DNA of 64,000 nucleotides. It comes from a virus. The notes beneath the pieces were generated by a model. The model searched no databases, was not told the origin of the DNA, and worked only from the letters and a program-made list of their open reading frames with translations. The stretch lies in IMG/VR virus record IMGVR_UViG_3300035670_000137, positions 12,782 through 76,781 of that record. One strand, 5' to 3'. Position numbers and translations under genes: made by a program. The first letter of the stretch is position 1. Every line of letters begins with the position of its first letter. Positions 4,792-37,919 of this stretch are shown in pieces.

Positions 4792-4835
4792 ACGTACCTC
4801 GCTTTTTTCCGATACGGAATTTCATTTTTCATATA

Positions 4836-4864
4836 TTATAGCACTGCACCTAGACAATGTCAAT
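4836..4864 (-). promoter_or_regulatory. sigma70-type late promoter for tape measure gene
   Basis: Minus strand TTGACA-N17-TATAAT. Confidence 0.8.
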
Positions 4865-4898
4865 GATAAATTTTTTAATGCAAAAAAGCCCACCAATT

Positions 4899-5270
4899 TT
4901 ACTTGGCAGGCTTTTTTGCATTAATTATACTAGAACGAATATTATCGATTATTTGAATTATGGCGAAACAGGTTTTTCTATCTTCTATCTCTGCAATACT
5001 AAATACATCGCTAATACCCGACATTACTTTACCCATATATACGCCATTCATTCCATCCCAATTATCTTGAAGCATATTATACACCATAAGGGCTTCTTGG
5101 ACATCATCGGACAGATCATCGTATTCTACAGGTATTTCTGACTCAACTGGTTCGTTACCCAGAGCAGCACACATTTCGAAATAAGTATCCTTAGTTACCT
5201 TTGCTTCCGCATTAAGGTAAAAGGACTTTATTTGCTCTTGGAGGGCGCTCCACTGGGCTGCTGAAAATTT
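4899..5270 (-). CDS. Tail assembly chaperone, frameshifted C-terminal part (gpT-like)
   Basis: The -1 frame is open from the slippery site at 5264-5270 (FSAAQWSALQEQIKSFY...EMCAALG...) through track ORF 4899-5174; lies between chaperone and tape measure. Confidence 0.85.
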   Translation of the reverse strand, partial: KFSAAQWSALQEQIKSFYLNAEAKVTKDTYFEMCAALGNEPVESEIPVEYDDLSDDVQEALMVYNMLQDNWDGMNGVYMGKVMSGISDVFSIAEIEDRKTCFAIIQIIDNIRSSIINAKKPAK

Positions 5271-7271: not shown

Positions 7272-7712
7272 TTAAAGAACTGGGTATTGAACCGTAATAT
7301 TTACTTCACCTACACCGTATGGCTCTAGGAGTCCCTCATCCGTAACTATGGAATTGATCAGAATTTCAGTAGTTTGAGCACCTGCGGTTTCAGTATCGTA
7401 TACTAGAGTTCGATTCGTATCGATAACCTTCTCTACATCTTCTAGAAGGTTTTCTAATTCTTGTGCGGGATTCTCTCCCTTTACGTACAACTTAAGGGAT
7501 ATACCAAGGAATCCCCATTTAAATCCGGCAGGAAGATACTCTCTAGTTTCTGAACCTGTGGACATGTAGATAGCTGGGAAATCTGATACTTCGTCCCAGA
7601 ACTTCAATTTAGGGTATGCATTACTAAATATATTAGTATTATACCCACCTGAACCATCTATTAACTTTAATTTCTCTGCCAATGCTTTGGCTATTGATGT
7701 TCTTACTGACAT
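7272..7712 (-). CDS. Tail terminator protein (T5 p142-like)
   Basis: MSVRTSIAKAL...FWDEVSDFPAI...ETREYLP...TDEGLLEPYGVGE; RBS GGAG before ATG 7712; synteny. Confidence 0.85.
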   Translation of the reverse strand: MSVRTSIAKALAEKLKLIDGSGGYNTNIFSNAYPKLKFWDEVSDFPAIYMSTGSETREYLPAGFKWGFLGISLKLYVKGENPAQELENLLEDVEKVIDTNRTLVYDTETAGAQTTEILINSIVTDEGLLEPYGVGEVNITVQYPVL

Positions 7713-8419
7713 ACTCTCCATCCTTTATGAGATTTTCTATGCCCATTTAGTACAGCACCTAAATTTGTATGTTGTAAGTTATGCTGCTTGGCAAATTCTT
7801 TTATATTATCAATATTTGTGAATACTTCTCCTGTTGGAGATATTAGATTAGGATTTATTTTTCCCAGTGCCTTTGAGGAAAATTTATGTCCTTTATTATG
7901 TATACCTTTAATACTTTTTAAGATATCATACTTATATGGATACACTTCCTCTAACCATTTATAGTTACTTAAACTGGCTATACTTCTAACTGTATACACA
8001 GATACAGCTGTAATGTCTGCAATATCAGATGCAGTCAAGTGCTGTTCATCTACTAAAAGATTAAATACTTTAAGGATTTGTTCGTTAGAATATTTGGAAC
8101 ATGGATTGTTAGTACCTCGTAAACCTAGGTGGCCCCGTCGTCCTCTTGACTCATCATATGTATTAAAACCATTTAATACACTATTAAATATATCTATAGC
8201 AATATTTTCATTCTCATCTAGTGTAGACTCAGTACACTCTAATAATATCTTTAGCTTAGGAATACCATACAGATTATATGCTTCCATTAACTTTTCTGAA
8301 CTTGTATTATTTTTAAGGCTATATTTATGTTGACCGAATCTATATTCTATATTATTAGATTGTCCTATATAAACTTTATCTGTACCTTCAAATTCTAAAC
8401 AATATATACCTATTGTCAT
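7703..8419 (-). CDS. GIY-YIG homing endonuclease (free-standing)
   Basis: GIYC...KVYIGQS...RF motif; C-terminal DNA-binding repeat (FAKQHNL...HKGW); likely start MTIGIY with AGGAG RBS. Confidence 0.9.
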   Translation of the reverse strand: MTIGIYCLEFEGTDKVYIGQSNNIEYRFGQHKYSLKNNTSSEKLMEAYNLYGIPKLKILLECTESTLDENENIAIDIFNSVLNGFNTYDESRGRRGHLGLRGTNNPCSKYSNEQILKVFNLLVDEQHLTASDIADITAVSVYTVRSIASLSNYKWLEEVYPYKYDILKSIKGIHNKGHKFSSKALGKINPNLISPTGEVFTNIDNIKEFAKQHNLQHTNLGAVLNGHRKSHKGWRVCQ

Positions 8420-8496
8420 GGTTGTTCTCCTGAAAGAAATTGAGGGCTGTTGTTCAGGCAACAGTTAACGGCTCATGACTTCCGAACCCTCTTAAA

Positions 8497-13782: not shown

Positions 13783-14214
13783 TTAGTAGAAGGAGCTAAA
13801 TAGTCCTTTAGGCTTTTCGCCTTCTAATCCCAGGGCTTTAGCTTTTTGCTTCTCTATCCACCGACACTGCTTTTCAGAACTATTTAATGGAGGAGCTTTG
13901 CCGAATATACCATGTAATTTTTGATGGTGCTTAAGGCAGAGCGTAAATACCCATTCATATATTTCCTGTCTATGGGACTCTATAAACTCATCTCTAACTG
14001 CTAGAATTCCTGCATCTGTGCTAATATCATAACCTTTTTCTTTGGCCCATTTTTCGAGTAATATTGTAAGAGATGTTGTATGATGTAACTCTAGTTCGGT
14101 TTTTGCTGAACAGATGAAGCATTCATCCTTCTTTTCGTACGCCGATTTAGCACGATCACGAACATGTTTTACAGCTACTCTTTTATTTGTATTAGCGCTC
14201 ATGCAAGTATCCAA
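13783..14214 (-). CDS. HNH-type nicking endonuclease next to portal/terminase
   Basis: CFIC...LELHH...TLCLKHHQKLH; same position as the T5 packaging-region nickase. Confidence 0.75.
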   Translation of the reverse strand: MDTCMSANTNKRVAVKHVRDRAKSAYEKKDECFICSAKTELELHHTTSLTILLEKWAKEKGYDISTDAGILAVRDEFIESHRQEIYEWVFTLCLKHHQKLHGIFGKAPPLNSSEKQCRWIEKQKAKALGLEGEKPKGLFSSFY

Positions 14215-14909
14215 CCTTTATAGCTAGGTCTTTGTCTACGTAATACTTTTCCTAAATATGCTTTACAAATTTTATGCTCTGATGCAAATTTAGTTATATT
14301 TTCTACTTTATACACTGTACCTTCTGGAGACATTATTTCTGGATACTCTATGCCTTTTCCCTTTGCGGAGCTTCGTATACTTTGTCTTAATATATTAGCC
14401 TTCTTTATATCGGCATAAATTTCTGGATACTCTATTTGTAACCATTTATGTGTACGTCCAGTAGCTATATCTCTTACAGTAGATATAGAAATATTTGTTA
14501 TTTCAGCTATATATTTATGAGTATGTGGATCTGTCAATAAAAGAAAACATTCTAATAACTGATCTTTTGTATACTTTAAATTACTAGACTCTAGTCCGGC
14601 TAGTCCCCCTACTGACTCGGTACCTCCAGTGGTTGAGTTAAGACCATTTATATAGGAATTATATACTTCAATAGCATTTATTTCCAAATCATTTAAATTA
14701 TCTTCATTAGTTTCTTCTATTAAGATACTAAAAGTAGGTGGCCCGAAAATATTATAAGCTTTTTGTAGCTTTTCAGATCCCTGTTGTAATCTTAGAGCAT
14801 ATAAATGTTCTTTGAATCTCTTTTCTATATGCTTCGATTGTCCAATATATACTTTATCGGTACCCTCAAACTGAAGGCAGTATATACCTATAGTCACTAT
14901 ATTCTCCAT
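14199..14909 (-). CDS. GIY-YIG homing endonuclease
   Basis: GIYC...KVYIGQS motif; paralogue of 7703-8419; alternative GTG start at 14897. Confidence 0.9.
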   Translation of the reverse strand: MENIVTIGIYCLQFEGTDKVYIGQSKHIEKRFKEHLYALRLQQGSEKLQKAYNIFGPPTFSILIEETNEDNLNDLEINAIEVYNSYINGLNSTTGGTESVGGLAGLESSNLKYTKDQLLECFLLLTDPHTHKYIAEITNISISTVRDIATGRTHKWLQIEYPEIYADIKKANILRQSIRSSAKGKGIEYPEIMSPEGTVYKVENITKFASEHKICKAYLGKVLRRQRPSYKGWILA

Positions 14910-16930: not shown

Positions 16931-18135
16931 TTCTCAATCCTATCAAATACCACGTCCCAAGACTGAGGGTTATTAAATACGCGTATATTAGGATACCATA
17001 CAGACGATCCAACCGAGGTATTAACTGTACCCCATCTAAAGTCAGTCTCTTTATACGGTTGAATTAGCCATCCCTCTCTCCCGAGCGCACCGACCATGTG
17101 CATACTAGACGTGTCGACACCAATAACGAGATCAAGCCCATTAATGTACTCTGCGGTTTCCTTCCACGTCCGTGGCTGTAGCCCCACAACATCCCGAGAG
17201 CCTTTAAAATCTGGTTGAAGACAATAAAGCTTCCCATACTTAGCAAACCGACTAAAGCGGCCAACAGTAGTACTACGATAAGCATCATTAGCATGAGTGG
17301 AATTACCACTAAATACAATACCAATGTGTTTACCAGGACCAAAATCGTGCGCACCATACTTACCTTCTAACCAATTATAATTACGTGTAACATCTGGAAA
17401 GCATTCTCCAAGGCTACACATAGGATAAGCTACAGTAGCATCACATTCACTAGCATCTCTAACAGTATGATATCCGGCTAACTCAAATACTTCGCCAAGA
17501 TTATTATCACACTGTACATACACGCGTTCAAATTTTTCGGATAGCCTATCAAGGTACCTAGCAAACATTAGATTATCACCAATGCCCTGCTCCACTAGAA
17601 CTACAATAGATGAACCACTAGAGACAGTATCCCAATACATGAGATTCTCTTTCATGTTCTTCATCTTGACTGGCTTAGCTTTTAAGAATCTAGCCTTATA
17701 CATTTCCCAGCCATGGGCAAAATCCTCTAAATCACCACTAGTACTGGCAATTCGTAGCCAAGCGGTACTAGAGTTCCACCAGCAATCCCAAGCTTTAGGG
17801 TCTATGCGAATAGCTTTTCTATAACAATCTAACGCTGCCACATCATCTCCATACATATAGTAAGCTAGTCCAAGATTGTTTAATACTTGAACCATTATTG
17901 CATCTGGAGTTCCTAGTAAAGAGGGAGCATTTAATGCCTCCTTATAATACTTCCACATCATAGCATCTTGACCCACAGCTCGGTAGGCTACTCCAAGATT
18001 ATTGCATACCTCCATGCAAGGATAAATATCGTAGGCTTTTTTAAGATATTGAATTGCTTTTTTAAAGTTGTTCTTTTCTAAATATATTACACCTTTATTG
18101 TAGATAGGTGTTACTTCTTCATGCGCTAAAATCAT
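16918..18135 (-). CDS. TPR-repeat glycosyltransferase (GT-B, GT9-like C-terminus)
   Basis: TPR helices (NNLGVAY, NNLGLAY), EQGIGD..MFARY, GIVFSGN, LDLVIGVDTSSMHMVGALG, FRWG..SVWYP. Confidence 0.85.
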   Translation of the reverse strand: MILAHEEVTPIYNKGVIYLEKNNFKKAIQYLKKAYDIYPCMEVCNNLGVAYRAVGQDAMMWKYYKEALNAPSLLGTPDAIMVQVLNNLGLAYYMYGDDVAALDCYRKAIRIDPKAWDCWWNSSTAWLRIASTSGDLEDFAHGWEMYKARFLKAKPVKMKNMKENLMYWDTVSSGSSIVVLVEQGIGDNLMFARYLDRLSEKFERVYVQCDNNLGEVFELAGYHTVRDASECDATVAYPMCSLGECFPDVTRNYNWLEGKYGAHDFGPGKHIGIVFSGNSTHANDAYRSTTVGRFSRFAKYGKLYCLQPDFKGSRDVVGLQPRTWKETAEYINGLDLVIGVDTSSMHMVGALGREGWLIQPYKETDFRWGTVNTSVGSSVWYPNIRVFNNPQSWDVVFDRIEKCLQ

Positions 18136-18608
18136 TTTGATCCTAAAAGTTTACTTATCAATGAACCATACTTGGTTCCATCGCCACCAAACTCGTTCAC
18201 TTGCATATTAACTTGCGTTTGAACCTTATTACCAGAGCGAATCTTCTCTAGCTGAATTTCACGATCTAGGATATCCATAGACATTTTGTGCGACATAGCT
18301 AGAAGATCTGCAATATCTTTAGATGAGCCTACTTCGGCCTCATCTAGTTCTTGCAACTTCTTCTGGATGATAACATCCATCACTTGTCTAAGTTTAAATC
18401 TATTATTGAACCCTAAGTCGGCAAATACAGTATTTATATATGCTCTTATTTCTTTTCTATCTAATGCATCTACAACGTAGTCTGGTGGCACTCCTAAAAT
18501 ATCGGCTACTTTTTGTATATTTTGATTCTCTAGATAGGTATTTGCAACTTCTAAAAATTCTGGTGAAATTTGAAGGGCTTGTGCTGGGCTTGCGGTAGGT
18601 AAATTCAT
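18132..18608 (-). CDS. terS: Terminase small subunit (T5-like)
   Basis: ISPEFLEVANTYL...EIRAYINTVF.DLGFNNRFKL...KKLQEL.E...SSKDIADLL resembles T5 TerS; likely start MNLPT. Confidence 0.85.
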   Translation of the reverse strand: MNLPTASPAQALQISPEFLEVANTYLENQNIQKVADILGVPPDYVVDALDRKEIRAYINTVFADLGFNNRFKLRQVMDVIIQKKLQELDEAEVGSSKDIADLLAMSHKMSMDILDREIQLEKIRSGNKVQTQVNMQVNEFGGDGTKYGSLISKLLGSK

Positions 18609-18609
18609 A

Positions 18610-19377
18610 TTATATACGGAAACATTCCGTTTCCCCTCCTCGATATTTAGGAAAAGTAGTTGGTACATACTTATACTCAGAGGTAGAATTTAACCACTTT
18701 TTTTCCAAGATAAGCGCTTCTGTCAGAGATAGACTAATATCTATTAATATCTCGTATGTTGGGTAACCTCTTAGTCGTTCTTTTATAGACCTTTGTGTTA
18801 TACCTGCTTTAAAGAAGTCATCTTCTAAAAAGTATACTAAGTATAAGATGGTCTCTCTATCTTTTATTAAAAATCCTTTTTTATTTGGGGGTACATTAGC
18901 TAACTCTAGAGCATTACTCCAGGTATTGAATCTATTTATGAAAGTATGCGCACATGGTATATTTTTATCTTTGATTCTATCAAAGTCTTCCATAGTGTAC
19001 ACTCCGCTACTGGCTAGAATCTCCAATAACTCTTCATCTGTCCATTTTTGTATACCACCAGAACTTCTAGTTGTTTTACCAGCTAAAGAAACTGCAGTAT
19101 TCCATGAGCCAAATCTATTTATGAAAGTATGCGCACATGGTACTCCATCAGTCCTATGTTTGTAGTTTGCCATTCTAGGATCTGGATCATTTTTTAAGAA
19201 GTTTATCAGTTCTTCGTCTGTGTATGTTTTATAAATTCGTTTTTGTAATCCAAGTCTTGCTCTTTTTACCTCTATAGATCCTTCTGATCTACCTAATTCT
19301 AAGCCTACCTGTTTATTGGTATAACCTTGTAAAAGAAATTCTTTTAATAAATCTTCTTCTTCTTGTGTCCATATCAT
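18610..19377 (-). CDS. Putative homing endonuclease with tandem HEG-associated repeats and C-terminal GIY-YIG-like domain
   Basis: Two TDEEL...PCAHTFINRF.(S/T)W..A..LA repeats; LYLVYF...KAGIT..SIKERL. Confidence 0.7.
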   Translation of the reverse strand: MIWTQEEEDLLKEFLLQGYTNKQVGLELGRSEGSIEVKRARLGLQKRIYKTYTDEELINFLKNDPDPRMANYKHRTDGVPCAHTFINRFGSWNTAVSLAGKTTRSSGGIQKWTDEELLEILASSGVYTMEDFDRIKDKNIPCAHTFINRFNTWSNALELANVPPNKKGFLIKDRETILYLVYFLEDDFFKAGITQRSIKERLRGYPTYEILIDISLSLTEALILEKKWLNSTSEYKYVPTTFPKYRGGETECFRI

Positions 19378-19684
19378 ATTAATTTAGTATAATTTATTAG
19401 TATAGGTAAAATTATAGCATATTAACTAAATATTGTCAAGTATATTTTTGTTGTATCCTACGAGATTAACAAAAATATTATTCAGTTTATAACACCTATT
19501 AGTATGTAGAATAATTCCTTTGGATACCGCGTGCGGGTGTGTCATTAGCTGGCACGGTTTATGCTAGTTTATTAACCGCCCTGGTCTATAAGCCTGGCTG
19601 ATGGGAGCATAGAAAACTTTGAATTGACATCGCAACCTGGCGCGACTACAATAACAACATCAGATAACGAAAGAGAAATAAAAA

Positions 19685-19840
19685 ATGTTTAACACTAATG
19701 GACACATGACACAAGATAACTTTAATGCTGTTGCATCTAAGGATCTGTTTCGTGCCATCTGGATTGCAAAGCACATGGGCGTAGCTGATACGGTTATGCG
19801 TGCGTGGGTTGCTGCTGTTCTTGCTGTTCTGAAAAAATAA
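19685..19840 (+). CDS. Small pre-early protein (51 aa)
   Basis: ORF MFNTNGH...AVLKK after promoter TTGACA(19624)...TACAAT. Confidence 0.6.
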   Translation: MFNTNGHMTQDNFNAVASKDLFRAIWIAKHMGVADTVMRAWVAAVLAVLKK

Positions 19841-19900
19841 TCTTGACTTCTGATGTTGCTTGTTCTATAATATAATCTCACTGATACGAAAGGAAACGCC

Positions 19901-20248
19901 ATGACTGCAAAGACTGTTAATTACACTCCTGAGCAAACCGCTGTTCTGATTTCGCGCTATGTTGATGAGAAGGTTAGCGTTGAGGCTATCGCTGCTGAAT
20001 TCGGCAAGAGCGTGCGTTCCATTGTTGCCAAGCTTTCGCGTGAAGGCGTATATAAGGCTAAGGAATACACCACGAAAAAGGGTGATGCTCCGGTGAAGAA
20101 GGATGCGCTTGCATCTGAGCTGATGCTGTTGGTTGGCTTGACTGAGGCTGAAGCTGATAGCCTTGGCAAGGCTAATAAGACTGCCTTGGCTAAGATTCTG
20201 GCTATCGTTAAGGCTGCAAAGATTAGCAATGCTAATGATGTAAGCTGA
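19901..20248 (+). CDS. T5 A2-like DNA-binding protein, copy 1
   Basis: NYT.EQT...IAAEFGKSVRSIVAKLSREGVY...DSL.KANKTAL, similar to T5 A2; own promoter at 19843. Confidence 0.75.
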   Translation: MTAKTVNYTPEQTAVLISRYVDEKVSVEAIAAEFGKSVRSIVAKLSREGVYKAKEYTTKKGDAPVKKDALASELMLLVGLTEAEADSLGKANKTALAKILAIVKAAKISNANDVS

Positions 20249-20313
20249 TGGATTATGGCACGGTTCCTGCTGTAAGCAGGGATCGTGCCAGGCTGAAAGA
20301 AAAAGGCCTTGAA

Positions 20314-20353
20314 AATCAAGGACTTAGGCCAGGGCCTGGGTAAGCTATTGATT
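20314..20353. promoter_or_regulatory. Inverted pair of IHF-consensus sites, copy 1
   Basis: AATCAAGGACTTA-14 bp-TAAGCTATTGATT; both halves match WATCAANNNNTTR. Confidence 0.7.
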
Positions 20354-20482
20354 TATAACACTTAATTCTGCGCCTACGACCATGGCACGGTTTTTGCTAT
20401 CCCTGGGCTTGTTACAATTTGTTACAATTAAGGGCTTGACTCTGCCATCCGATCAACTATAATTCAATCATAGCAAAACGAA

Positions 20483-20671
20483 ATGGAGATTGAAATGCTC
20501 AAGGTTATGTGTTCTGATTTGGCAACCGGTAATCGCAAGGTTTTCGCGGTTTGTGCAACTCCTAAAATGGCGCTTGGCATTCAAAAGCGTATGAATGAAC
20601 GGAATGAGGAAGCTACTAAATTTACTGGCAAAGCTATCCGTTTCGTTTATTTCGTTGTTCGTTCGAGGTAA
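20483..20671 (+). CDS. Hypothetical pre-early protein
   Basis: ORF after promoter at 20436; GGAG RBS. Confidence 0.6.
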   Translation: MEIEMLKVMCSDLATGNRKVFAVCATPKMALGIQKRMNERNEEATKFTGKAIRFVYFVVRSR

Positions 20672-20769
20672 ATCATGGAATACTTCATTGGCTTAATTGT
20701 TCTGCTGCTTGTTCCTGAGATCCTGAATTCGGTTATTGATGCCGTCAAAGAATGGGAAGAATTGACAAA

Positions 20770-21147
20770 ATGAAATACGACGTTGTTAAACTCCACGCTT
20801 TCGCTAATAAAATCGCCGTTGCTTTTTGGGATTATGCCAAGCAATATTGGCGTGAGGATATTGGCGAAATGCCGGAAATTCGGATGAATTCGCGATTGAC
20901 TAGCACTGCCGGTCGCGCTTTTCTTCAAGATAACTATGTCGATTTGTCTTGCTATCTGTTGCAGAATAACCCCGAATATTTCCGCATCGATACTATTCCA
21001 CATGAATTGTGCCATCATATTGCTTTCCGTATTTATGGTGATCGTGGTCACGGTAAGGGTTGGAAATATGTAATGAAATCGATGGGATTATCCGGTGATC
21101 GTTGTCATACGAGGCAAACTAAATATCAAGCTGAAAGGGCTAAATAA
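20770..21147 (+). CDS. SprT-like zinc metalloprotease
   Basis: RLTSTAGRA...TIPHELCH...GHGKGWK. Confidence 0.85.
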   Translation: MKYDVVKLHAFANKIAVAFWDYAKQYWREDIGEMPEIRMNSRLTSTAGRAFLQDNYVDLSCYLLQNNPEYFRIDTIPHELCHHIAFRIYGDRGHGKGWKYVMKSMGLSGDRCHTRQTKYQAERAK

Positions 21148-21464
21148 TGTCATACGTTACTATTAATAAACATGATGCTGGTATTCTGTTTAATACTGCG
21201 GAATTGGCTGCGTTGGCCGTATTTAATAAATATGAGCAAACGATTAAAGAATACTATGCTGATAGGATTACAACTAAAAAGATTCTGGGGATTAGCTTTA
21301 AGGTTGATAATTCTAGAATGCAGGACGAAATGTCAATAATTATTCCTAAATATAGGGTTAAAGAGACAATTGATAAGATTCGGCAATTGAATGCAATGCT
21401 TGAATACGCCGATGAAATGAATATTTCAACAAAAGACTGGGAAATTATTACTCGCTATATGTGA
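21147..21464 (+). CDS. Hypothetical protein
   Basis: Coupled ORF (TAATG overlap). Confidence 0.65.
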   Translation: MSYVTINKHDAGILFNTAELAALAVFNKYEQTIKEYYADRITTKKILGISFKVDNSRMQDEMSIIIPKYRVKETIDKIRQLNAMLEYADEMNISTKDWEIITRYM

Positions 21465-21491
21465 GCACTTACCAACCAAAAAGGTCTTTAG

Positions 21492-21531
21492 AATCAAGGG
21501 CTTAGCGGGGCCCTGGCCTAACCCCTTGATT
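21492..21531. promoter_or_regulatory. Inverted pair of IHF-consensus sites, copy 2
   Basis: AATCAAGGGCTTA-14 bp-TAACCCCTTGATT. Confidence 0.7.
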
Positions 21532-21732
21532 TATAAGGGGTTAGGCCAGAAACGCACCAACCTGGGGCGCGCCGATTTTACCACGGCCGGCGTGGAATGT
21601 CAATAGGCCGCGGCATCAAATGTTTTTATGGGCGCATAAAAATTACTTCGAAAAAATTTTTGCGAAAACGCTTGACAGCCTGGGGCAATGGGCGCATAAT
21701 ACGTTCATCAAATAACGAAAGGTAATAAACAA

Positions 21733-22206
21733 ATGTCAATTAAGCGTGTTCAGATTTACGATATGGATGGAACCATTGTGGATTCCACGCATCGTTATCG
21801 GACGATTTCGGAAAATGGAATCGAAAAGATTGATCTTGAATATTGGCGTGCTAATGAATATCGCGCAATGGATGATTCATTGCTTCCGCTTGCAGATCAA
21901 TATAAGGCTGATTTGGCTGATCCTGAATGCTATGTTATTATCGCAACTGCTCGCGTTCTGAATGAACCGGATATTAAATTCATTAATGAAATTCTCGGGA
22001 AACCGGATTATATTATTTCTCGGAAACCGGATAGCAGCATTTCCGGCGGTGTTTTAAAGGTTAATGGATTGCGTAAATTCTTTAATCTCAAGAATTTCAA
22101 AAATGCTGCGTTTGTGTTTTATGAGGATAATGCAGCATATCTGAAAAAGGTTTGCGATACTTTTAAAATCTCCGGTGTATATTGTCCGTCTAATCAGGGT
22201 CACTAA
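21733..22206 (+). CDS. HAD-superfamily phosphatase (possible nucleotidase, functional analogue of T5 Dmp)
   Basis: YDMDGTI motif I, ATAR motif II, FYEDN motif IV; pre-early location. Confidence 0.75.
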   Translation: MSIKRVQIYDMDGTIVDSTHRYRTISENGIEKIDLEYWRANEYRAMDDSLLPLADQYKADLADPECYVIIATARVLNEPDIKFINEILGKPDYIISRKPDSSISGGVLKVNGLRKFFNLKNFKNAAFVFYEDNAAYLKKVCDTFKISGVYCPSNQGH

Positions 22207-22210
22207 AATC

Positions 22211-22906
22211 ATGGCTAAAAAAGAATATTTCCTCATTGTTGATACTGAAACGACGGCGAATGATACTGTTTTCGATTTCGGTGCGGTTGTTTGTGATCGC
22301 AAGGGTAATATTGTGCAGAAATGCGCGATTATCGTAAAAGAGGAATTGGATAAAGATTTGTTCTTTGATCCGAAAGCGGAAGGCATTTGGTCGCGTCAAT
22401 ATGCGAATAAGAAAAAAGCCGGTTATCTGGAAATGATTAATAATGGTAATCGGATGGTCGCATCTGTTGCCGCTGTTAATCGTTGGCTTGAAAAGGTAGC
22501 GGCTAAATATAATCCGACTATTACCGCTTATAATTTCGCTTTTGATCGTGAGAAATGCGCGAAAACCGGAATTGATTTGTCGATGTTTAATTCTAGCTTC
22601 TGCCTTTGGCATTTGTCCTGCTCGATTTATGCTAAGACTAAGGCTTATCGGCAATTTATTCTCGATAATCATTATTTCGGTAATCGGACTAAATTCGGCA
22701 ATATGACTTACAAAACCAATGCCGAGGTTATGGCTCATTTTGTAACTGGTAATTATTCAGAAGAACCGCATACTGCAATTGAAGATGCTCAATATTATGA
22801 GCTTCCGATTCTGGTTTCTATTCTGAAAAAGAAAGGCTGGAAAAATAAAATTGGAACCGCTTATAATTGGAAAGATTACCAATTAAAAGATAATTTTAAG
22901 GCTTAA
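22211..22906 (+). CDS. DEDDh 3'-5' exonuclease
   Basis: VDTETT, AYNFAFD, HTAIEDA motifs. Confidence 0.85.
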   Translation: MAKKEYFLIVDTETTANDTVFDFGAVVCDRKGNIVQKCAIIVKEELDKDLFFDPKAEGIWSRQYANKKKAGYLEMINNGNRMVASVAAVNRWLEKVAAKYNPTITAYNFAFDREKCAKTGIDLSMFNSSFCLWHLSCSIYAKTKAYRQFILDNHYFGNRTKFGNMTYKTNAEVMAHFVTGNYSEEPHTAIEDAQYYELPILVSILKKKGWKNKIGTAYNWKDYQLKDNFKA

Positions 22907-22920
22907 TAGGAAAATATAAA

Positions 22921-23118
22921 ATGAATACTTTAATTTATCGTGAAAATGGGAATATTGAACAAAAAGAATTCAAATCAATATATGAGGCTGCAAACTGGGT
23001 AAAAGAAAATACCGGATATTTTGAGGCAAATGAGAATATTTTAATTGTTGATTGGAAAATGAAAGAACAGCAATGGTTCCAATTGCAATTAACTATTAAA
23101 TTGGTTGAATTAGAATAA
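22921..23118 (+). CDS. Hypothetical protein
   Basis: ORF with AGGA RBS. Confidence 0.6.
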   Translation: MNTLIYRENGNIEQKEFKSIYEAANWVKENTGYFEANENILIVDWKMKEQQWFQLQLTIKLVELE

Positions 23119-23273
23119 TATTATAAATATGGCTGATATACTATTTATAATCTGGATAATATATTGGCTATATATTGCCTTTATTGCTGAATAATATTAT
23201 AAATAGGTCTTATATAAGACCTATTTTTTCGGCCAGGATGTAAGCGAGCACTCACTCCAGAAAAAGCCTTTAG

Positions 23274-23313
23274 AATCAAGGACTTAGGTGGAGGCCCCGC
23301 TAACCCCTTGATT
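23274..23313. promoter_or_regulatory. Inverted pair of IHF-consensus sites, copy 3
   Basis: AATCAAGGACTTA-14 bp-TAACCCCTTGATT. Confidence 0.7.
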
Positions 23314-23488
23314 TATAAGGACTATTTTTCGACTATCAATGACTTACAGAACATGGCACGCTTCTTGCTTCAATCCTGGCTCATAAGAAATTTTTATGCT
23401 AGGATAGAAATTACTTCGAAAAAAGTTCTTGACAAGATGAAACGGTCGGAGCATAATATGCCCATGTTAAACGATAGGATTAATTGAA

Positions 23489-23698
23489 ATGATTGCTTGG
23501 ATTGGTACGATTTGCGGTATTATTGGTGCTTTGCTTGTTGCCGCTAATAATGGTCATCAGGACATTGGTTATATGTTCTTTTTGGTAGGTGCGGGTTTTT
23601 CTCTTGCATCATCGATCAAAGAAAAGCACAAAGCGAATATCGCTCTTTGGTCGGTTTTCTTTTCGATTAATGTTTATGGATTGATGCGTTATGTCTAA
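23489..23698 (+). CDS. Small membrane protein
   Basis: Three hydrophobic segments; follows promoter at 23429. Confidence 0.7.
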   Translation: MIAWIGTICGIIGALLVAANNGHQDIGYMFFLVGAGFSLASSIKEKHKANIALWSVFFSINVYGLMRYV

Positions 23699-24044
23699 GA
23701 AATTGGAAAATGAGGTTAAGCGATTCGCTTATGATTTTATGGAAAAAATGGGCTGGAAACCTGTCCATATTAATCGGATCAAAATCTCTAATATGCGTCG
23801 TTATAAGGGATTGTGTATAACTGAAGATTGCGAATCGGTTTATATCATCCTGAGCGAGCATACTCACGACAACAATAAGGATTTTTTCGCTACGCTTATT
23901 CATGAATTGATCCATGCACATTTGCTGATTAATAAGCATAAGTTTATGTCACATCATAAGCATGGCAAAATGTTTAAGCGTTACGCTAAAAAGGTTGAAA
24001 AGAAAACAAACGGATATTATACTGTCGAGGAAATCGTAAAATGA
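23691..24044 (+). CDS. SprT-like zinc metalloprotease, second copy
   Basis: TLIHELIH...HGKMFK. Confidence 0.75.
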   Translation: MSKKLENEVKRFAYDFMEKMGWKPVHINRIKISNMRRYKGLCITEDCESVYIILSEHTHDNNKDFFATLIHELIHAHLLINKHKFMSHHKHGKMFKRYAKKVEKKTNGYYTVEEIVK

Positions 24045-24357
24045 AAAAGACTTTCGAGGAATGGAAAAAGCAGGTTGATCTGGAAATCGAAAAGCGTGCT
24101 TATGGCTTGAATTCTGACGATCTGCCCGATTATGATTATTGGGCTGAATGGGAAGCCGGAGAATCTCCGGTTTTTACTGCAAAGGCTGCAATTCAAAACG
24201 CGAAGGATTATTAAAATGGAATTCGATCTAGTTGATGAAATGATGTGGGAAGATTTAATTGATTTTGAATCTCTTGAATCTGTCGGGCTTGAGGATTCAT
24301 ATTGTGGAGATACTGTTCCGGCGGCCCAGGCTGTATATTACTCGGAGGAAATGTGAT

Positions 24358-24582
24358 ATGATAAAACTCGTTATTTCTTTTGATGAATTCGAAGGCGTAT
24401 TAGGTCATCTTGATCCGCATTTGGATGCCGCTTGCCAAGCAATGGAAGCATATAACGATTGGCTTTGCGATTATCTGGAAAATCAATTCCCTGATTGGGA
24501 TATTGAACTGGCATTTGATTTTAATAATGCCGAATGGGATTTTGATAATACCGAGGTACATATTCCAATGATCGTGCAATAA
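24358..24582 (+). CDS. Acidic hypothetical protein
   Basis: MIKLVISF ORF with GGAGG RBS; Asp/Glu rich. Confidence 0.55.
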   Translation: MIKLVISFDEFEGVLGHLDPHLDAACQAMEAYNDWLCDYLENQFPDWDIELAFDFNNAEWDFDNTEVHIPMIVQ

Positions 24583-24614
24583 TCGTGCCAGCAAAACCCC
24601 GAAAAGTCCTTACA

Positions 24615-24654
24615 AATCAAGGACTTAGCGGGGCCCCTGGCTAACTCATTGATT
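24615..24654. promoter_or_regulatory. Inverted pair of IHF-consensus sites, copy 4
   Basis: AATCAAGGACTTA-14 bp-TAACTCATTGATT. Confidence 0.7.
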
Positions 24655-24837
24655 TTAAAGGCTTTTTTCGGCGTATGACAGCATAATATCCTGGGCTTGT
24701 CCAATCAAATTTTTCTATATGAGGATAGAAATTTTCGTGTTGCTTTGCCGAATCCGATTCTGTATAATTCTTTACATGGGATGACGAACTGGCTCAACGA
24801 AATCCCAAACCCTAAACCGAGCCACTAGGAAAATGCT

Positions 24838-25176
24838 ATGACCAAGACCGTCAATTATACTCCGGAACAAACCGTTGAACTCGTTTCCGCTTATACCGCG
24901 AATCCGTCGCAAGAAACTGTTGTGATGTTTGCCGAAAAGCTCGGCAAGTCGGTTCGGTCGATTGTTGCCAAACTCTCCCGCGAGGGCGTTTATAAGGCCA
25001 AGGAATACACGACCAAGAAGGGTGAAAAGCCGGTCAAGAAGGATTCGATGGCTGACGCTATCGGTGCGGTTCTCAAGCTGACCGAAGCTGAAACCGATTC
25101 GCTTGCGAAGGCTAACAAAACGGCTCTTGCCAAGATTTTCGAGGCTCTTGCCAATTCCAAGCCGATCGACGGCTAA
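24838..25176 (+). CDS. A2-like DNA-binding protein, copy 2
   Basis: Close paralogue of 19901-20248 (shared GKSVRSIVAKLSREGVYKAKEYTTKKG). Confidence 0.8.
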   Translation: MTKTVNYTPEQTVELVSAYTANPSQETVVMFAEKLGKSVRSIVAKLSREGVYKAKEYTTKKGEKPVKKDSMADAIGAVLKLTEAETDSLAKANKTALAKIFEALANSKPIDG

Positions 25177-25193
25177 AAGCAAAAAGCATACCA

Positions 25194-25219
25194 GATACCC
25201 GCTTCGGCGGGTATTTTTT
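25194..25219 (+). terminator. Rho-independent terminator
   Basis: ATACCCGC-TTCG-GCGGGTAT followed by T-run. Confidence 0.85.
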
Positions 25220-25336
25220 CGTCCCGAGCCAGGCGGGCACGATTCTTGCGCCCAAATTTTGTGCCAGCGCCTGGGCATGATAATTGCTAATAGGAATCGC
25301 ACGTAACCCATTGATTCACTAAAAATAAGCCTTTAC

Positions 25337-25376
25337 AATCAAGCACTTAGGGCCGGGGCCCCATAAACCTTTGAAA
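25337..25376. promoter_or_regulatory. Inverted pair of IHF-consensus sites, copy 5 (second half degenerate)
   Basis: AATCAAGCACTTA-14 bp-TAAACCTTTGAAA; further single sites at 25304, 25454, 25497. Confidence 0.6.
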
Positions 25377-26358
25377 GTCAAGACAATTTTTTCGAACCTT
25401 ATCAGGCACTTACCTCCGCCGACCATCACCTAAGTTGCCGCCGCCAGCGCGCGAATCAAGGACTTACGTCACGAACCTCCAAAAATTCATCCATCAAATC
25501 AACCACTTATACCACCATAAATCCGCAGCTCCGCTGCGCCTGAGTGCAAAAACAGTGCAAATCCTAAATTTTCGAGGGCTGCCCCAAGCCTTGTCAAGTG
25601 CAAAAATCTCAACCTGCCACCGCCGGACCGCTACACCAGTGCAGGTGCGAAAATTTTGAGGCCCCTGGCTGCGCCCATTATAAAGTGGGAAACCTGTGAG
25701 TGTCAAGACTAAATTTTCGAAGGTTGGACCTGGCGGCGAAATAAGTGAAGAACAATTAGTGCCTGGCTCGCGGCCTTCGCCGCAATTTGGCACGATTTAT
25801 TTTCCATAGCGGCAATTTGGCACGATTTAGGGTCAAATTCAAACAATTTAGGACAATTTATGCGATTTGTGCGCTTTTTGCGACATAAGTACCGAATTTG
25901 GCACTTGTGCTCGGCGTGGTGGGCCGGATTTTAACCTATTCCAAACCGCTTCAGGCTTGAAATTTCTGTCTTGATATAAAAAACCGGAGCGACTATAATA
26001 TAAAAATGTTGTGAAGCCCTGGCACTTTGGGAAACAATAAAAAATTTAGACTTGCGACACGGAGTTAAAGCGAATATAATATTTACATGATGTGAGAGAG
26101 GGGAACCAAGATGGATGAGGATAGAATCACTTCTTTTTGGTATGATACGTCGCTTGAATGGGGCGTTACCGTAGCAGAAGCATCAGATGAAAATGTTGTG
26201 TGTAGCATAGTAGCAGCGATGTTTGAAGACGATGTACCGTTTTAACATCCTGACCCTAAATTGTAGCAAACCGTAGCAAATTGTTTTACACATTATCAAT
26301 ATTGGCTGAGGACTGCGAAGCCAAACAACCAAAACCAAATCAAGAAAGGCAGCAAATT

Positions 26359-26658
26359 ATGAACACGAAAGTCCAAAACTACTCCGCCGAAACCGTTGAA
26401 AAGATGGTGTTCGATTACAAAGCTGGTGTTGCTGTTGAGCAAATCGCTCAGGAAATCGGGAAGTCTGTCCGGTCTGTTGTGGCCAAGCTCTCTCGCGAAG
26501 GTGTCTACGTTGCTAAGAAGTCTGCTGCGAAGGCAGATGGCAAGGTCACCAAAGCTGATCTGATCGCTAAGATCGCCGCGAAGTTCGAAGTTGAGGCGGA
26601 AGTCCTGGCCTCCCTCGAAAAGGCTACCAAGGAAGCTCTCGAAGTTCTGGCAGCTTAA
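26359..26658 (+). CDS. A2-like DNA-binding protein, copy 3
   Basis: NYSAE...GKSVRSVVAKLSREGVY...ASLEKATKEAL. Confidence 0.8.
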   Translation: MNTKVQNYSAETVEKMVFDYKAGVAVEQIAQEIGKSVRSVVAKLSREGVYVAKKSAAKADGKVTKADLIAKIAAKFEVEAEVLASLEKATKEALEVLAA

Positions 26659-27046
26659 TCAAATTTAGGGTCGGGTGAGCAAAAGATCCTGACCCTAAAT
26701 TGCTACATGGGCGAAGTGAGAAATTGCTTTCCCTAAACCGCAGCAGGTTGATCACCAAGTGACCGGCTTGCTGCGATTAGAGTAAGAGCAATAAGTCTTA
26801 GGTGCGTAGAGACTATAAAAGTGACGCATACCGTAATGGGGAAAACATGTAGAAATTTTACATTAACGAAACCCGTCCTAGTGCTCACTAGAGATTTAAC
26901 TGTTAGAGCTATGAGCAAGCTAACTAACGTCGGAGAAAGTAACCGACCCTAAATTGCAGCATATCGAAAGGTATGCTGCATTTTTTGTATCTACTCATTT
27001 CACCAAAGAAAAAGCCAGGTCTGATTTCTCAGCCTGGCTTTTTTGC

Positions 27047-27370
27047 TTACTGTTTCAATTCTCTTATACGTTGTTCCATCAGTATAAGTGCTGTTTTTGT
27101 TACCTTTTCACAAGATTCCAGCAAATCGATATTAATATCAAGAAGTTTTGCAATCCTCTCGATATACTCCTCTTTCTTAACTGGAGTTTCGCCACGCTTG
27201 TTGAGGTACTCTTTCCTCTTATAAACACCTAGCGAGCTTAACTTAGCAATAACTGAGCGAACTGGAACAACTTCAGTATCAGTAGATAACTTAGCAGCTA
27301 ATTCCTCTACAGGAATACCTGCTTTATAATCTTCTATTAATTTATTTACGATCTCTAAAGTGTATTTCAT
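27047..27370 (-). CDS. A2-like DNA-binding protein, copy 4
   Basis: YKAGIPVEELA...VRSVIAKLSSLGVY...ESCEKVTKTAL. Confidence 0.75.
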   Translation of the reverse strand: MKYTLEIVNKLIEDYKAGIPVEELAAKLSTDTEVVPVRSVIAKLSSLGVYKRKEYLNKRGETPVKKEEYIERIAKLLDINIDLLESCEKVTKTALILMEQRIRELKQ

Positions 27371-27371
27371 A

Positions 27372-28130
27372 TTAGATATCCCATTCTAATATAGTTTTAG
27401 GTGCTTTTACTTCAGTATCAATTAAGGAGGAAGGCATTTCATCCCAATTACTCGGATTTAGTACCATATACTCATGTCTAATTGTAGGATGAGCAAGCCA
27501 TACCTGAGTTAACATAATTTTAGCCAACCTGGGTAAAGCATCGAATTCTTCTACACCGGTATGCGTTATAGTAGTAGTGCTAACAGGATTTTTGACTGTT
27601 CCAGCCTTATCTCCTGTTTTAATTGTAGATCCAATTACTCGTAGTTCTAGTAGTTCCTCTTTAGTATAGCTTGGACATACACAATACATAGCATTATATA
27701 TATCTGGATCTACTAAACTCTTAAAGTTTACCCATTTAGAGTAGGGAATGGATTGATACTTCTTAAAGGCAGCTAAAAATAAAGGAACGAGAGCACTATA
27801 AGGCAACATATCCGGGCTAGTAGCTTTTACACCGGCGGGGATAATAATACCTCTAGGACTACTCATCAAGTATAGTAACAAACCTTTAAACCATTCTGAC
27901 CCTAAATCGCAGCGAGTTATTGCTTGCCTAACAGTTAGTACTCCATCATACATACCATCAGCATTCTTAACTGGTGTAACTTTACCCAGATAAGCTAAAG
28001 CTTGAGGTAGTGCCCAACTAGAATACTTTGCGAAGGATTTGCGTTGATTAGTACCTTCTGGACCATCTTCATAAACTAACTGAAAGGGTACCTCTTTTAA
28101 CTCTCTTTTGCTAAAACTAAAAGTTGCCAT
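27372..28130 (-). CDS. Hypothetical protein
   Basis: 252-aa ORF directly upstream of A2-like copy 4; minus-strand promoter near 28452-28480. Confidence 0.75.
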   Translation of the reverse strand: MATFSFSKRELKEVPFQLVYEDGPEGTNQRKSFAKYSSWALPQALAYLGKVTPVKNADGMYDGVLTVRQAITRCDLGSEWFKGLLLYLMSSPRGIIIPAGVKATSPDMLPYSALVPLFLAAFKKYQSIPYSKWVNFKSLVDPDIYNAMYCVCPSYTKEELLELRVIGSTIKTGDKAGTVKNPVSTTTITHTGVEEFDALPRLAKIMLTQVWLAHPTIRHEYMVLNPSNWDEMPSSLIDTEVKAPKTILEWDI

Positions 28131-28791
28131 TTTATTTCTTTCTTGGTGGGTGCGGCATTTTCAGCAATTTGCTATAGCCACTTAAATTAAAAAACAACCA
28201 AAAATAGGGGTATTTTCAATTATTAAAAAACCTATTTTTAGCTTAAACAATAAATACAATTTGCCCCAAAAAGACAAATTATATTAAGTGTAACCGAGGT
28301 GCGAGCAGATTTAGAAAATTTCTGAGAACATGATCTCTGGGATGAAGGTTTTCGTTTTAGAATTCGAAAAACGCTATCCCAGGAGTTCACAGAAATTTAC
28401 AAATCTGCAACACCTCGGTAAAATTGAATTAAGTAATCCAATTTATATAATATTATATCATCTGCAGAAGCATAAGTCAAGGATAATTTTTTCTCAGCAG
28501 GTGAGGGGCGTTATTTATTGATAGTTATATTATACGGGTTTAAGCGATTAAAGTCAAGTGAGCTTTTGAGGTAGTGAAATTTTAGACTTGAATTTATTAG
28601 CGGAATGGTGTATAATATAAAAATGGAGGGAGTATGTACGAGAGAAAATATGTTTCCGCTTTAGAGGATCTAATAATGGATGAGCTACTGCCTATGTATA
28701 TAGTGGGCTGTAGATCTACTGGTATTGATCCTAGGGCTAATGCAATTTTAGCAAAACTAATGGACGCTAGAAAACTACGAGAAGAAATACC

Positions 28792-29064
28792 ATGGATACT
28801 GAAGGCAGAATAGAATTTATAGCACTACTAGACCAGGAACTGGCAGCAGTGCGAGCAATGTTAATTAAAAAGAACGAAGCATACGGCAATTCTGCTCTAA
28901 ACCCTCTCCGAATTTTCGCCAAAGGCGATAGGTTGGAGGGACTTAGGGTCAGGATGGATGATAAACTTAGTCGGCTTGCCCGAGGCAATGCCGATGATGA
29001 GGACGTAGTGTTAGACCTGCTGGGCTACTTACTCATTTATAGAATCGCCCAGCAAGGTCTATGA
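28792..29064 (+). CDS. DUF1599 / nucleotide modification-associated domain protein
   Basis: KKNEAYGNS...RMDDKLSRL...DLLGYL. Confidence 0.75.
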   Translation: MDTEGRIEFIALLDQELAAVRAMLIKKNEAYGNSALNPLRIFAKGDRLEGLRVRMDDKLSRLARGNADDEDVVLDLLGYLLIYRIAQQGL

Positions 29065-29104
29065 TCGCTACGGGATCACTTTTAGTTGTCTAAGGAGACT
29101 AAAA

Positions 29105-29566
29105 ATGCGTAAAACACAACTAATGGGAATGATTGAACTTTTAGACAGTCTGTCTGCTAATACATGGAAGCAAGTGGAAAGCTGGAAACAGAGTATTCCG
29201 AACTGGCCACCATATAATTTTAAGAAGACTGACGAAAATCATTATGTAATTGAAATGGCTGTAGCTGGCTTCGGCAGTTCAGACCTGGATATTACAATGG
29301 ACAAGGATACTTTAGTAATTAAAGGATCCATGACTCCTGACCCTAAAGTGGAGTATATTCACAAAGGTATTGCAGAACGTGCATTTGAAATGGCGTTTCC
29401 GCTGCCTAAAACTGTAGAAGTTAAAAACGCTTCTCTAGTAAATGGAATGCTGAAAGTATGGCTAGAAAACTTTGTTCCAGAGGATCAAAAGCCTCGTAAG
29501 ATCGAAGTTAAGGAAGCTGTATCAGCAGATCTTAAAACTGTAGAAACGGCTAAAATAGCTGCTTAA
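29105..29566 (+). CDS. Small heat-shock protein (Hsp20, IbpA-like)
   Basis: PPYN..K....YVIEMAVAGF...YIHKGIAERAF...A.L.NGML. Confidence 0.92.
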   Translation: MRKTQLMGMIELLDSLSANTWKQVESWKQSIPNWPPYNFKKTDENHYVIEMAVAGFGSSDLDITMDKDTLVIKGSMTPDPKVEYIHKGIAERAFEMAFPLPKTVEVKNASLVNGMLKVWLENFVPEDQKPRKIEVKEAVSADLKTVETAKIAA

Positions 29567-37697: not shown

Positions 37698-37919
37698 ATG
37701 ATTGAATGCATGAACGCTAAAGAATATATTACTTTCGACCCTAAATTGCAAGAACACCTCCAGGCTTACTACACTCTCCACTATCGTGGAAAGCAGAGTA
37801 ATCTGAGATTTCGCTTGGAGAAACCCTTTACTAACGTAGTTGCTATGATGCAGCATAAGATCTGCGAAATGCAACTGCAGCAATCCATTAAAGGATTTGC
37901 ACTCGACCTGAGGTATTAA
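37698..37919 (+). CDS. Hypothetical protein
   Basis: AGGAG RBS; ORF. Confidence 0.65.
   Translation: MIECMNAKEYITFDPKLQEHLQAYYTLHYRGKQSNLRFRLEKPFTNVVAMMQHKICEMQLQQSIKGFALDLRY

Follow-up and report, generated by a model that had tools for sequence, protein, structure and literature searches.

Why does a phage place an inverted pair of sites resembling those of a host protein, integration host factor (IHF), at the boundaries of its operons, and what reads these pairs? The question is raised by a stretch of 64,000 nucleotides (nt), hereafter the window, which covers positions 12,782–76,781 of IMG/VR record IMGVR_UViG_3300035670_000137, a contig of 76.8 kb (73% complete) from a subsurface metagenome. 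The phage is a distant, uncultured relative of T5, and the pairs lie in what is plausibly its pre-early region. An earlier reading of the same sequence, here called the original prediction, had noted five pairs and proposed that host IHF folds the first-injected DNA there. The explanation that best fits our results, to which we assign a probability of roughly 55%, is that the repeated unit (the module) is a DNA element made of two complete IHF-type sites, at which two host IHF dimers would form a sharply bent boundary and promoter-upstream element at each pre-early operon junction.

Anatomy and conservation of the paired sites

A search of the window with the pattern AATCAA-N4-TTA-N14-TAA-N4-TTGATT gave four pairs without mismatches, at 20314, 21492, 23274, and 24615, and a fifth at 25337 with two mismatches, all in the right arm. 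Shuffled sequences gave a chance expectation of 0.15 pairs, and none of 100 shuffles reached six matches. The sole additional match (35554, three mismatches) was inside a tRNA-Met gene, and no further pair was found when the whole 76.8-kb contig was searched. The 13-bp IHF consensus WATCAANNNNTTR matched the window 14 times, as compared with 5.75 expected, and 13 of those matches, four single sites included, fell within 5.2 kb (20314–25509). The spacers of all five pairs were 14 bp long, contained at least 12 G+C in 14, and included GGCC. These searches bore out the five pairs and four single sites of the original prediction, its spacer of 14 bp with GGCC, and its finding of no pair elsewhere in the window. 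Its description of the repeat stood only in part: the pairs are real, but the real unit is longer, about 72 nt, with an A-tract, CCTT, and a mirrored T-tract. A motif-free repeat search recovered this 72-nt unit in four copies and a 51-nt core in five. GGCC itself was seen 103 times in the window with 103.6 expected, neither avoided nor enriched, which ruled it out as a restriction or methylation signal. The modules (no strand assigned) and the single sites are as follows:

20300–20367, module 1: A5 tract; left site 20314–20326 (+), G+C-rich spacer 20327–20340, right site 20341–20353 (−); outer right flank degenerate
21478–21545, module 2: sites 21492–21504 (+) and 21519–21531 (−); spacer GCGGGGCCCTGGCC
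23260–23330, module 3: sites 23274–23286 (+) and 23301–23313 (−); A5 and T6 flanks
24601–24668, module 4: sites 24615–24627 (+) and 24642–24654 (−); A4 and T6 flanks
25323–25395, module 5: left site 25337–25349 (+) intact; right arm 25364–25376 degenerate, with the two mismatches
23334–23346 (+), single IHF-consensus site, 7 nt upstream of a perfect sigma54-type box
25304–25316 (−), single site matching the IHF consensus
25454–25466 (+), single IHF-consensus site AATCAAGGACTTA, without CCTT
25497–25509 (+), single IHF-consensus site with A5 upstream, conserved at L042:5238 in a related contig described below

Within the pre-early-like region, each operon has a module at its downstream boundary. 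Module 5 opens a 1.1-kb noncoding, repeat-rich stretch, the start of which holds the densest cluster of sites, one pair and three singles within 200 bp. The proposal that the DNA is folded at regular intervals of about 1–2 kb was not upheld, because the interval is the length of the operons between copies, and the pattern is more aptly described as one module per operon boundary. The suggestion that the sites titrate IHF was also discarded; a cell contains thousands of IHF dimers, and with about 14 sites titration is implausible.

The canonical IHF site spans 34 bp and has four elements: WATCAA starting near the center, TTR 4 bp farther on, an A-tract of four to six residues in the 5′ half, and AA steps (PMC1874591). 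The AA/TT steps, 9 bp apart, are where the IHF prolines intercalate, and a site that combines all four is favored about 2,500-fold over random sequence (PMC1874591). Our alignment covered 36 half-sites of the clade, which consists of the window and three related contigs. The arm layout was A5 (−14 to −10), N2, CCTT (−7 to −4), N3, AATCAA (0 to 5), N4 that is mostly GGAC, TTA (10 to 12), and then G/C. WATCAA was present in both arms of the four intact pairs, in the left arm of module 5, and in the four single sites. In the 36 half-sites, TTR was TTA in 94% and TTG in 6%; the kink steps appeared as T at −5 and −4 (83% and 78%) and AA at +4 and +5 (100%), at a distance of 9 bp; and A occupied −14 to −10 in 72–86%, the tract being missing at 25454 and from the right flank of module 1. 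As far as sequence can tell, each arm carries all four canonical elements at the right distances, including an A-tract and 9-bp-spaced kink steps in addition to the consensus match noticed by the original prediction, and the half-sites are better IHF candidates than that prediction knew. IHF binding of the modules is, on this anatomy, likely. Half-sites that occur singly can show the full A5-CCTT-AATCAA-N4-TTA layout, and in the clade the arms of a pair were no more alike at their variable positions than randomly paired arms; for these two reasons the arms appear to act as independent sites.

If WATCAA starts at the center of each 34-bp site, two facing sites at the observed spacing would occupy 74 bp and leave about 6 bp of the core free, in agreement with the 72-nt repeat. 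Their centers would be about 40 bp, or about 3.8 helical turns, apart, and the bends would therefore point in different planes. We infer that two host IHF heterodimers bind side by side on one module, and the U-turn made by each would then produce a compact, nonplanar nucleoprotein hinge. Such a hinge could act in two ways: it would provide the flanking promoters with an architectural upstream element, like that of IHF-assisted sigma54 promoters, and it would form a boundary between tandem, very strongly transcribed cassettes. No gene for a DNABII (HU/IHF) protein was found on the contig, and therefore any IHF would be that of the host.

Relatives were obtained from an IMG/VR scan for the pair and from a later protein-based search. 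These loci and the orthologues of each module are listed here:

L073 and L042 (one contig): proteins 52–81% identical, gene order the same; five pairs, located in the five corresponding intergenic spacers
L245 (4.4 kb, lake metagenome bin): A2-like protein 65% and neighbor gene 71%; a single pair, orthologous to module 5
L104: terminase 57%; three pairs plus four single sites, which again separate operons and precede promoters
L359, L361, L362, and L363: terminase 60–69%, Dmp up to 65%, three A2-like genes each; no pair
L360: a fifth pair-less locus of the L359 kind, with the same exonuclease match as L359
Module 1: L073:797
Module 2: L042:907
Module 3: L042:2995
Module 4: L042:4238
Module 5: L042:5155 and L245:17, both of them intact pairs

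All 13 intact pairs in the four contigs of the clade had a 14-bp spacer, with at least 12 G+C in 14 in every one. Conservation of the 14-bp spacing in relatives, named in the original prediction as a check, thus held within the clade; it is not universal, because elements in other phages have 15 or 22 bp. When orthologous intergenic spacers were aligned whole, the module was the best-conserved block. Identity between orthologous modules was 97% for WATCAA, 97% for TTR, 80% for the A-tract, 68% for N4, and 61% for the spacer, and fell to 30% outside the module.

Hairpins and promoters beside the modules

Palindromes between genes can also be RNA hairpins, which stop transcription from either side or serve as RNase III cleavage sites like those between the T7 early genes; the IHF match would then be coincidental. 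When folded as RNA, modules 3 and 4 gave −25 and −30 kcal/mol (z about −4), with the A run pairing with the U run in the shape of a bidirectional terminator (stable hairpin plus U run). Module 2 forms a strong 16-bp hairpin, three of the five operons end without any other hairpin, and the arms of a wider family of such palindromes, treated below, are truly complementary. On the other side, modules 1 and 5 lacked the terminator shape and folded no better than shuffles (z −0.2 and +0.9), and there was no consistent preference for folding of the sense over the antisense strand, the antisense being as good or better. Selection on base pairing was lacking in the clade, where we found no covariation between the arms or within an arm (CCTT...AAGG complementarity). 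In the wider family, among the matches listed, sense-strand mismatches were G.U in 63 cases and A.C in 59, and these equal counts argue against selection on RNA. Single half-sites cannot pair, and an Rfam search at a permissive threshold returned two chance-level matches, both unrelated to the modules. Canonical intrinsic terminators were present separately, before modules 3 and 5:

23201–23229 (+), intrinsic terminator, 11-bp stem plus U6, just upstream of module 3; −11.9 kcal/mol, z −4.0
25193–25219 (+), intrinsic terminator, 10-bp stem plus U6, after an A2-like gene and upstream of module 5; −15.3 kcal/mol, z −3.9

The orthologue of module 3 in L042 was likewise preceded by a terminator. 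Because arm covariation was absent, the hairpin was weak in two of the five modules, and separate terminators were present, we conclude that the module is in all likelihood a protein-binding DNA element and that a primary role as RNA is very unlikely.

Promoter-like sequences flank the modules. The sigma54-type pattern TGGCAC-N5-TTGCW occurred as three perfect and four one-mismatch boxes in 19.5–25.6 kb; the rest of the contig contained one, with one mismatch. The boxes nearest to modules, and the strong sigma70-like sites (each matching 11 of 12 positions) that follow, are:

20275–20290 (−), sigma54-type box, one mismatch, 23 nt before module 1 and facing left
20383–20398 (+), sigma54-type box, perfect, 29 nt after module 1; conserved as TGGTATG-N4-TTGC at L073:855
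23354–23369 (+), sigma54-type box, perfect, 40 nt after module 3; conserved at L042:3050, 15 nt after the pair
24575–24590 (−), sigma54-type box, perfect, 24 nt before module 4 and facing left
20436–20463 (+), sigma70 promoter-like site of the operon after module 1
21672–21700 (+), sigma70 promoter-like site of the operon after module 2
23429–23457 (+), sigma70 promoter-like site of the operon after module 3; conserved in L042

In the window and the relative, the sigma54-type boxes flanked the modules at 15–40 bp and pointed outward; in L073/L042, TGGTATG-N4-TTGC stood 15–18 nt after three of the five pairs. The distance from the module center to the next strong sigma70 promoter was 100–160 bp and variable. 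The leftward box before module 1 is also half of a 35-bp palindrome (20256–20290) of two opposite-strand sigma54-type boxes (20256–20271, +, and 20275–20290, −), which directly follows the first A2-like gene and is not conserved in L073.

A precedent for this arrangement is found in Vibrio, where hcp promoters have an IHF site 16 bp upstream of the sigma54 box, and mutation of that site reduced promoter activity six-fold in the wild type and not in an ihfA mutant (PMC5963220). The IHF site at Vibrio hcp/tssD2 has the same orientation relative to the sigma54 box as the module arms, and this parallel strengthens the IHF reading. It may also offer a reason for the mirror symmetry of the module, in that each outward-facing promoter would be served by one arm.

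Distribution of the module and competing explanations

A number of observations weigh against the reading of the module as a double IHF site. The sites are more uniform than IHF requires (AATCAA rather than WATCAA, N4 mostly GGAC, CC at −7/−6, and a GGGCC core); this excess could come from another, more specific reader or from recent copying between sites, and the G+C-rich GGGCC core of the spacer is not explained by IHF alone. Binding is deduced from the DNA letters, and the host of this subsurface phage is assumed to possess both IHF and sigma54. Some terminator activity of modules 3 and 4, with their long hairpins flanked by A and U runs, is possible. With respect to sigma54, no enhancer-binding activator (Sigma54_activat, PF00158) was found on the 76.8-kb contig, which is 73% complete, and no upstream activator site for the boxes was identified; the activator could possibly be supplied by the host. 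There were no sigma54 boxes near the pairs of L104, and none within 200 bp of similar palindromes in 118 other viral loci. Because L104 and T4-like phages have no boxes nearby, the sigma54 link appears to be lineage-specific. Finally, relatives that are closer by terminase (60–69%) have no pairs and almost no IHF consensus, and the first 12 kb of T5 have no IHF consensus at all; the module is therefore dispensable for a T5-like life style.

These pair-less relatives carry a different repeat in the corresponding intergenic spacers. At L359:5770–11560 there are six copies of an intergenic repeat of about 93 nt, at the operon boundaries where the window has modules. It consists of a TGTTGC-N5-GCAACA hairpin, then GCGCCAAAATT-TACCAC-AAATTTTGGGGCC, and then GTCAATAG, and a remnant of it is present in the window at 21575–21615, after module 2. 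From the other repeat in the pair-less relatives and the missing consensus in T5 we conclude that the module is lineage-specific and exchangeable.

The excess uniformity would be accounted for if the palindromes were read by some other sequence-specific protein, such as an A2-family paralogue, a virion-borne protein, or another host factor, with the IHF match a look-alike. Conservation beyond the IHF consensus in AATCAA, GGAC, CCTT, and the GGGCC core is what such a protein might impose. The replacement of the module by a different repeat in close relatives looks as if a cis-site and its reader co-evolve. T5 A2 is annotated as DNA-binding, and four members of its family (phrog_1725) are found beside the modules. 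Yet A2-like paralogues, 55–68% identical, are kept in T5 and in relatives without pairs and are thus independent of the module. The idea that the pairs are a platform for the A2 paralogues is accordingly disfavored, since both T5 and relatives with three A2-like genes manage without them. No gene of the region tracked the module, which is present in the window, L042, and L104 and absent from L359–L363. Conservation falls exactly on the four IHF elements, correctly spaced, and the same half-site occurs in unrelated Vibrio phages. We therefore regard a different reader as unlikely.

Another explanation is that the module is a recombination joint between gene cassettes, a mobile regulatory cassette like an attachment (att) site or a PeSL (promoter-early stem-loop) that shuffles early genes and whose copies are kept similar by copying. 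A module and an early promoter stand at every cassette boundary, as PeSLs do; module presence among relatives is patchy; and the genes beside the modules differ between the window and L042, the one close relative in which gene content was compared. The o105 gene and the o57/o46/o74 group are missing from L042, which has extra open reading frames at 1719–1949 and 2675–2887 and the o65 homologue on the other side of module 3. As a weak further sign, related-strain contigs of the same samples join or break at modules. These contigs, seen in runs X1–X4 over window positions 18500–29500, break or join at or near modules, for example at 20358>21478, 23288>24762, and 24034>25229, and in one strain variant 24034–25229 is replaced by a 40-nt insert bearing a terminator. 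Joints called at 85% contig likeness are ambiguous, however, since cross-alignment between copies of the repeat may produce them. The window and L042 have their conserved genes (A2-like, SprT-like, Dmp-like, and exonuclease-like) in the same order, and homologous exchange does not need position-specific conservation that matches a protein site. A role as a joint is quite unlikely to be the main explanation; it is also compatible with IHF binding and so no strict alternative to it.

Similar palindromes are widespread in uncultured phages. The 40-bp pair pattern matched at least 118 IMG/VR loci, as compared with two for a scrambled palindrome of the same composition. Among the matches listed, many were in uncultured T4-like phages of about 165–215 kb, and the elements were mostly intergenic, usually between same-strand genes; unlike the clade, this wider family has truly complementary arms, and its spacers are 14, 15, or 22 bp. 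In L006–L123 the palindrome lies between early genes of uncultured T4-like phages and its outer flanks (TTACAATTTA...) are conserved. None of 14 T4-like contigs tested had psbA, and for that reason they are probably not cyanophages. A BLAST search with the T4-like-family element against cultured phages gave nothing useful. A scan of bacterial genomes for the pair returned 120 matches, almost all of them chance-like A+T-rich palindromes from many phyla, and gave no clue to the host. The sole related match was L245, a short metagenome-bin contig from a phage relative, which has the module signature. The scan thus gave no sign of the module as a host chromosomal repeat.

In cultured Vibrio phages the extended half-site occurs singly, beside the small-terminase gene or just after the large-terminase gene, and, in two copies, within an iteron-rich, origin-like spacer that adjoins a helicase gene. 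Terminase-gene and origin-like settings are, by analogy, classical ones for IHF sites. The origin-like spacer is that of Vibrio phage 1.123.O (L236, record 3812–5041), a divergent spacer beside a DnaB-type helicase gene with repeated CCCTCGCGG iterons; its two AATCAAGCACTTA half-sites are direct and 70 bp apart.

The pre-early-like region and its known counterparts

The capsid protein of the phage shares about 40% identity with its counterparts in T5-like Vibrio phages, and the phage has 24 tRNA genes. The late genes are on the minus strand, as far as the small terminase at 18132–18668, and the early genes and tRNAs are on the plus strand from about 28.6 kb. The region between these late and early modules, 19.4–28.5 kb, has the position expected for a collapsed T5 terminal repeat. 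It contains a homologue of the T5 pre-early protein Dmp (pairwise E 2e-10), near-consensus sigma70 promoters at the head of each operon, and four paralogues of the T5 A2 family, phrog_1725, which T5 A2 itself matches at 4e-52; T5, in contrast, has a single A2 gene. On the Dmp homologue, the A2 paralogues, the promoters, and the position, it is plausible that the region is pre-early. A near-identity BLAST search of the region against cultured phages gave no match. Genes of the region and its surroundings are:

19901–20248, A2-family paralogue (phrog_1725)
24838–25176, A2-family paralogue (phrog_1725)
26281–26658, A2-family paralogue (phrog_1725)
27047–27370 (−), A2-family paralogue (phrog_1725)
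20752–21147 and 23691–24044, two SprT-like zinc metalloprotease genes (HExxH) among the pre-early-like genes
22211–22906, DEDD-type exonuclease-like gene among the pre-early-like genes
7703–8461 and 14199–14909, two GIY-YIG/HNH-type homing endonuclease genes inserted between late structural genes

The 13-mer GACCCTAAATTGC is also repeated here, with nine copies at one mismatch or fewer (0.35 expected), seven of them on the plus strand. The copies are concentrated in 25822–27910, the noncoding right part of the pre-early-like region, and occur also at 37737 and 52781. A near-identical sequence, GATCCTAAATTGCAGC, is repeated in L359, a relative without IHF pairs. GACCCTAAATTGC could be a nick, stop, or regulatory site; a paper on BF23 stated no nick-site consensus with which to compare it.

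The location raises the possibility, suggested by the original prediction, that IHF on the first-injected DNA takes part in its entry, ratcheting it in or stopping injection, or else protects it from nucleases. The region has the position and marker genes of T5 first-step-transfer DNA, and at entry the only proteins present would be those of the host or those co-injected. The site cluster that opens the 1.1-kb noncoding repeats recalls the region of the T5 injection stop signal (iss), where the involvement of a host DNA-binding protein has been suggested (10.1101/866236), and a role in entry would parallel the DnaA-box model for that signal. Against this, a terminal repeat is indicated only by unitig depth, which over 19.1–24.7 kb was 1.5–1.7 times that of the flanks in two samples; depth, like the contig joints, was read from assembled contigs of sequencing runs and is for that reason a weak hint. 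No homologue of A1 (phrog_1745) was found on the contig, in a search whose control likewise gave no signal, so that absence of A1 is not demonstrated. T5 and relatives manage without pairs, and placement at operon boundaries beside promoters points to transcription instead. We thus judge a function in entry or protection to be improbable, and prefer the double IHF site acting on promoters and boundaries.

With respect to known systems, the module arms share with canonical IHF sites, of which lambda attP H′ is a type case, the WATCAA, TTR, 9-bp-spaced TT/AA steps, and 5′ A-tract. They differ from these and from the IHF sites of sigma54 promoters in forming inverted pairs around a fixed 14-bp G+C-rich core, at every operon boundary, in a region of a lytic phage. 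The PeSLs of T4-type phages (PMC2839356, PMC4122927) are like the module in being repeated, conserved intergenic elements that accompany a strong early promoter between small early-gene cassettes, with a lineage-specific motif and neighboring gene content that varies between relatives (PMC2839356, PMC4122927). A PeSL is a short terminator stem-loop directly upstream of the −35, whereas the module is a 72-bp pair of protein sites 100–160 bp from the promoter, free of selection for pairing and with separate terminators alongside.

A second likeness is to BIME-1/RIB (RIP) of Escherichia coli, bacterial interspersed mosaic elements (BIMEs; RIB, reiterative IHF BIME; RIP, repetitive IHF-binding palindromic element). 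According to a passage of PMC3333891 that cites Boccard and Prentki (1993), these palindromic repeats bind IHF and are located at the 3′ ends of transcription units. As characterized there, they too are palindromic modules downstream of transcription units, with an IHF site beside G+C-rich palindromic DNA, and a topological or transcriptional boundary role has been proposed. In that description BIME-1 has one IHF site between two G+C-rich REPs (repetitive extragenic palindromes); the module is the same arrangement turned inside out, with two IHF sites around one G+C-rich core. BIME-1 is also chromosomal, whereas the module is carried by phages. The third likeness is to the T5 first-step-transfer region, which has inverted repeats with paired DnaA boxes (Davison, bioRxiv 10.1101/866236). 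Both are conserved palindromes in a pre-early region, with the consensus of a host DNA-binding protein and a fixed internal spacing; in T5 the protein is DnaA and the repeats form one untranslated block, whereas here it would be IHF and the modules are at operon boundaries. DnaA boxes as in T5 were rejected for the window, 19.4–28.6 kb of which contained a single match. A literature search turned up no account of phages in which paired IHF sites form a repeated boundary module.

In T5-type phages the first short piece of injected DNA must be read by untouched host machinery, and its organization and the pause in entry have been open questions for decades. In this lineage the pre-early region appears to be organized around paired IHF-type sites beside sigma54-type and sigma70 promoters. 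The occurrence of the palindrome at at least 118 loci, as compared with two for the scrambled control, suggests a common element of uncultured phages for which the literature search found no description. A tentative and rather doubtful extension would make double-IHF hinges a general class of phage cis-elements, swapped between lineages, that organize early cassettes into bent, insulated units. Uncultured T5- and T4-like phages would then recruit host IHF, and here also sigma54 RNA polymerase, onto the first-entering DNA, with a part in the two-step entry control of T5-like phages. T5 itself is described as sigma70-only in a passage of PMC7472727; if IHF binds the modules, the finding may suggest use of sigma54 by a T5-like phage. 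Binding would also make the 72-bp double-bend insulator a natural part for synthetic biology, and the region would be a compact, testable case of a lytic phage that uses a host architectural protein in its takeover region.

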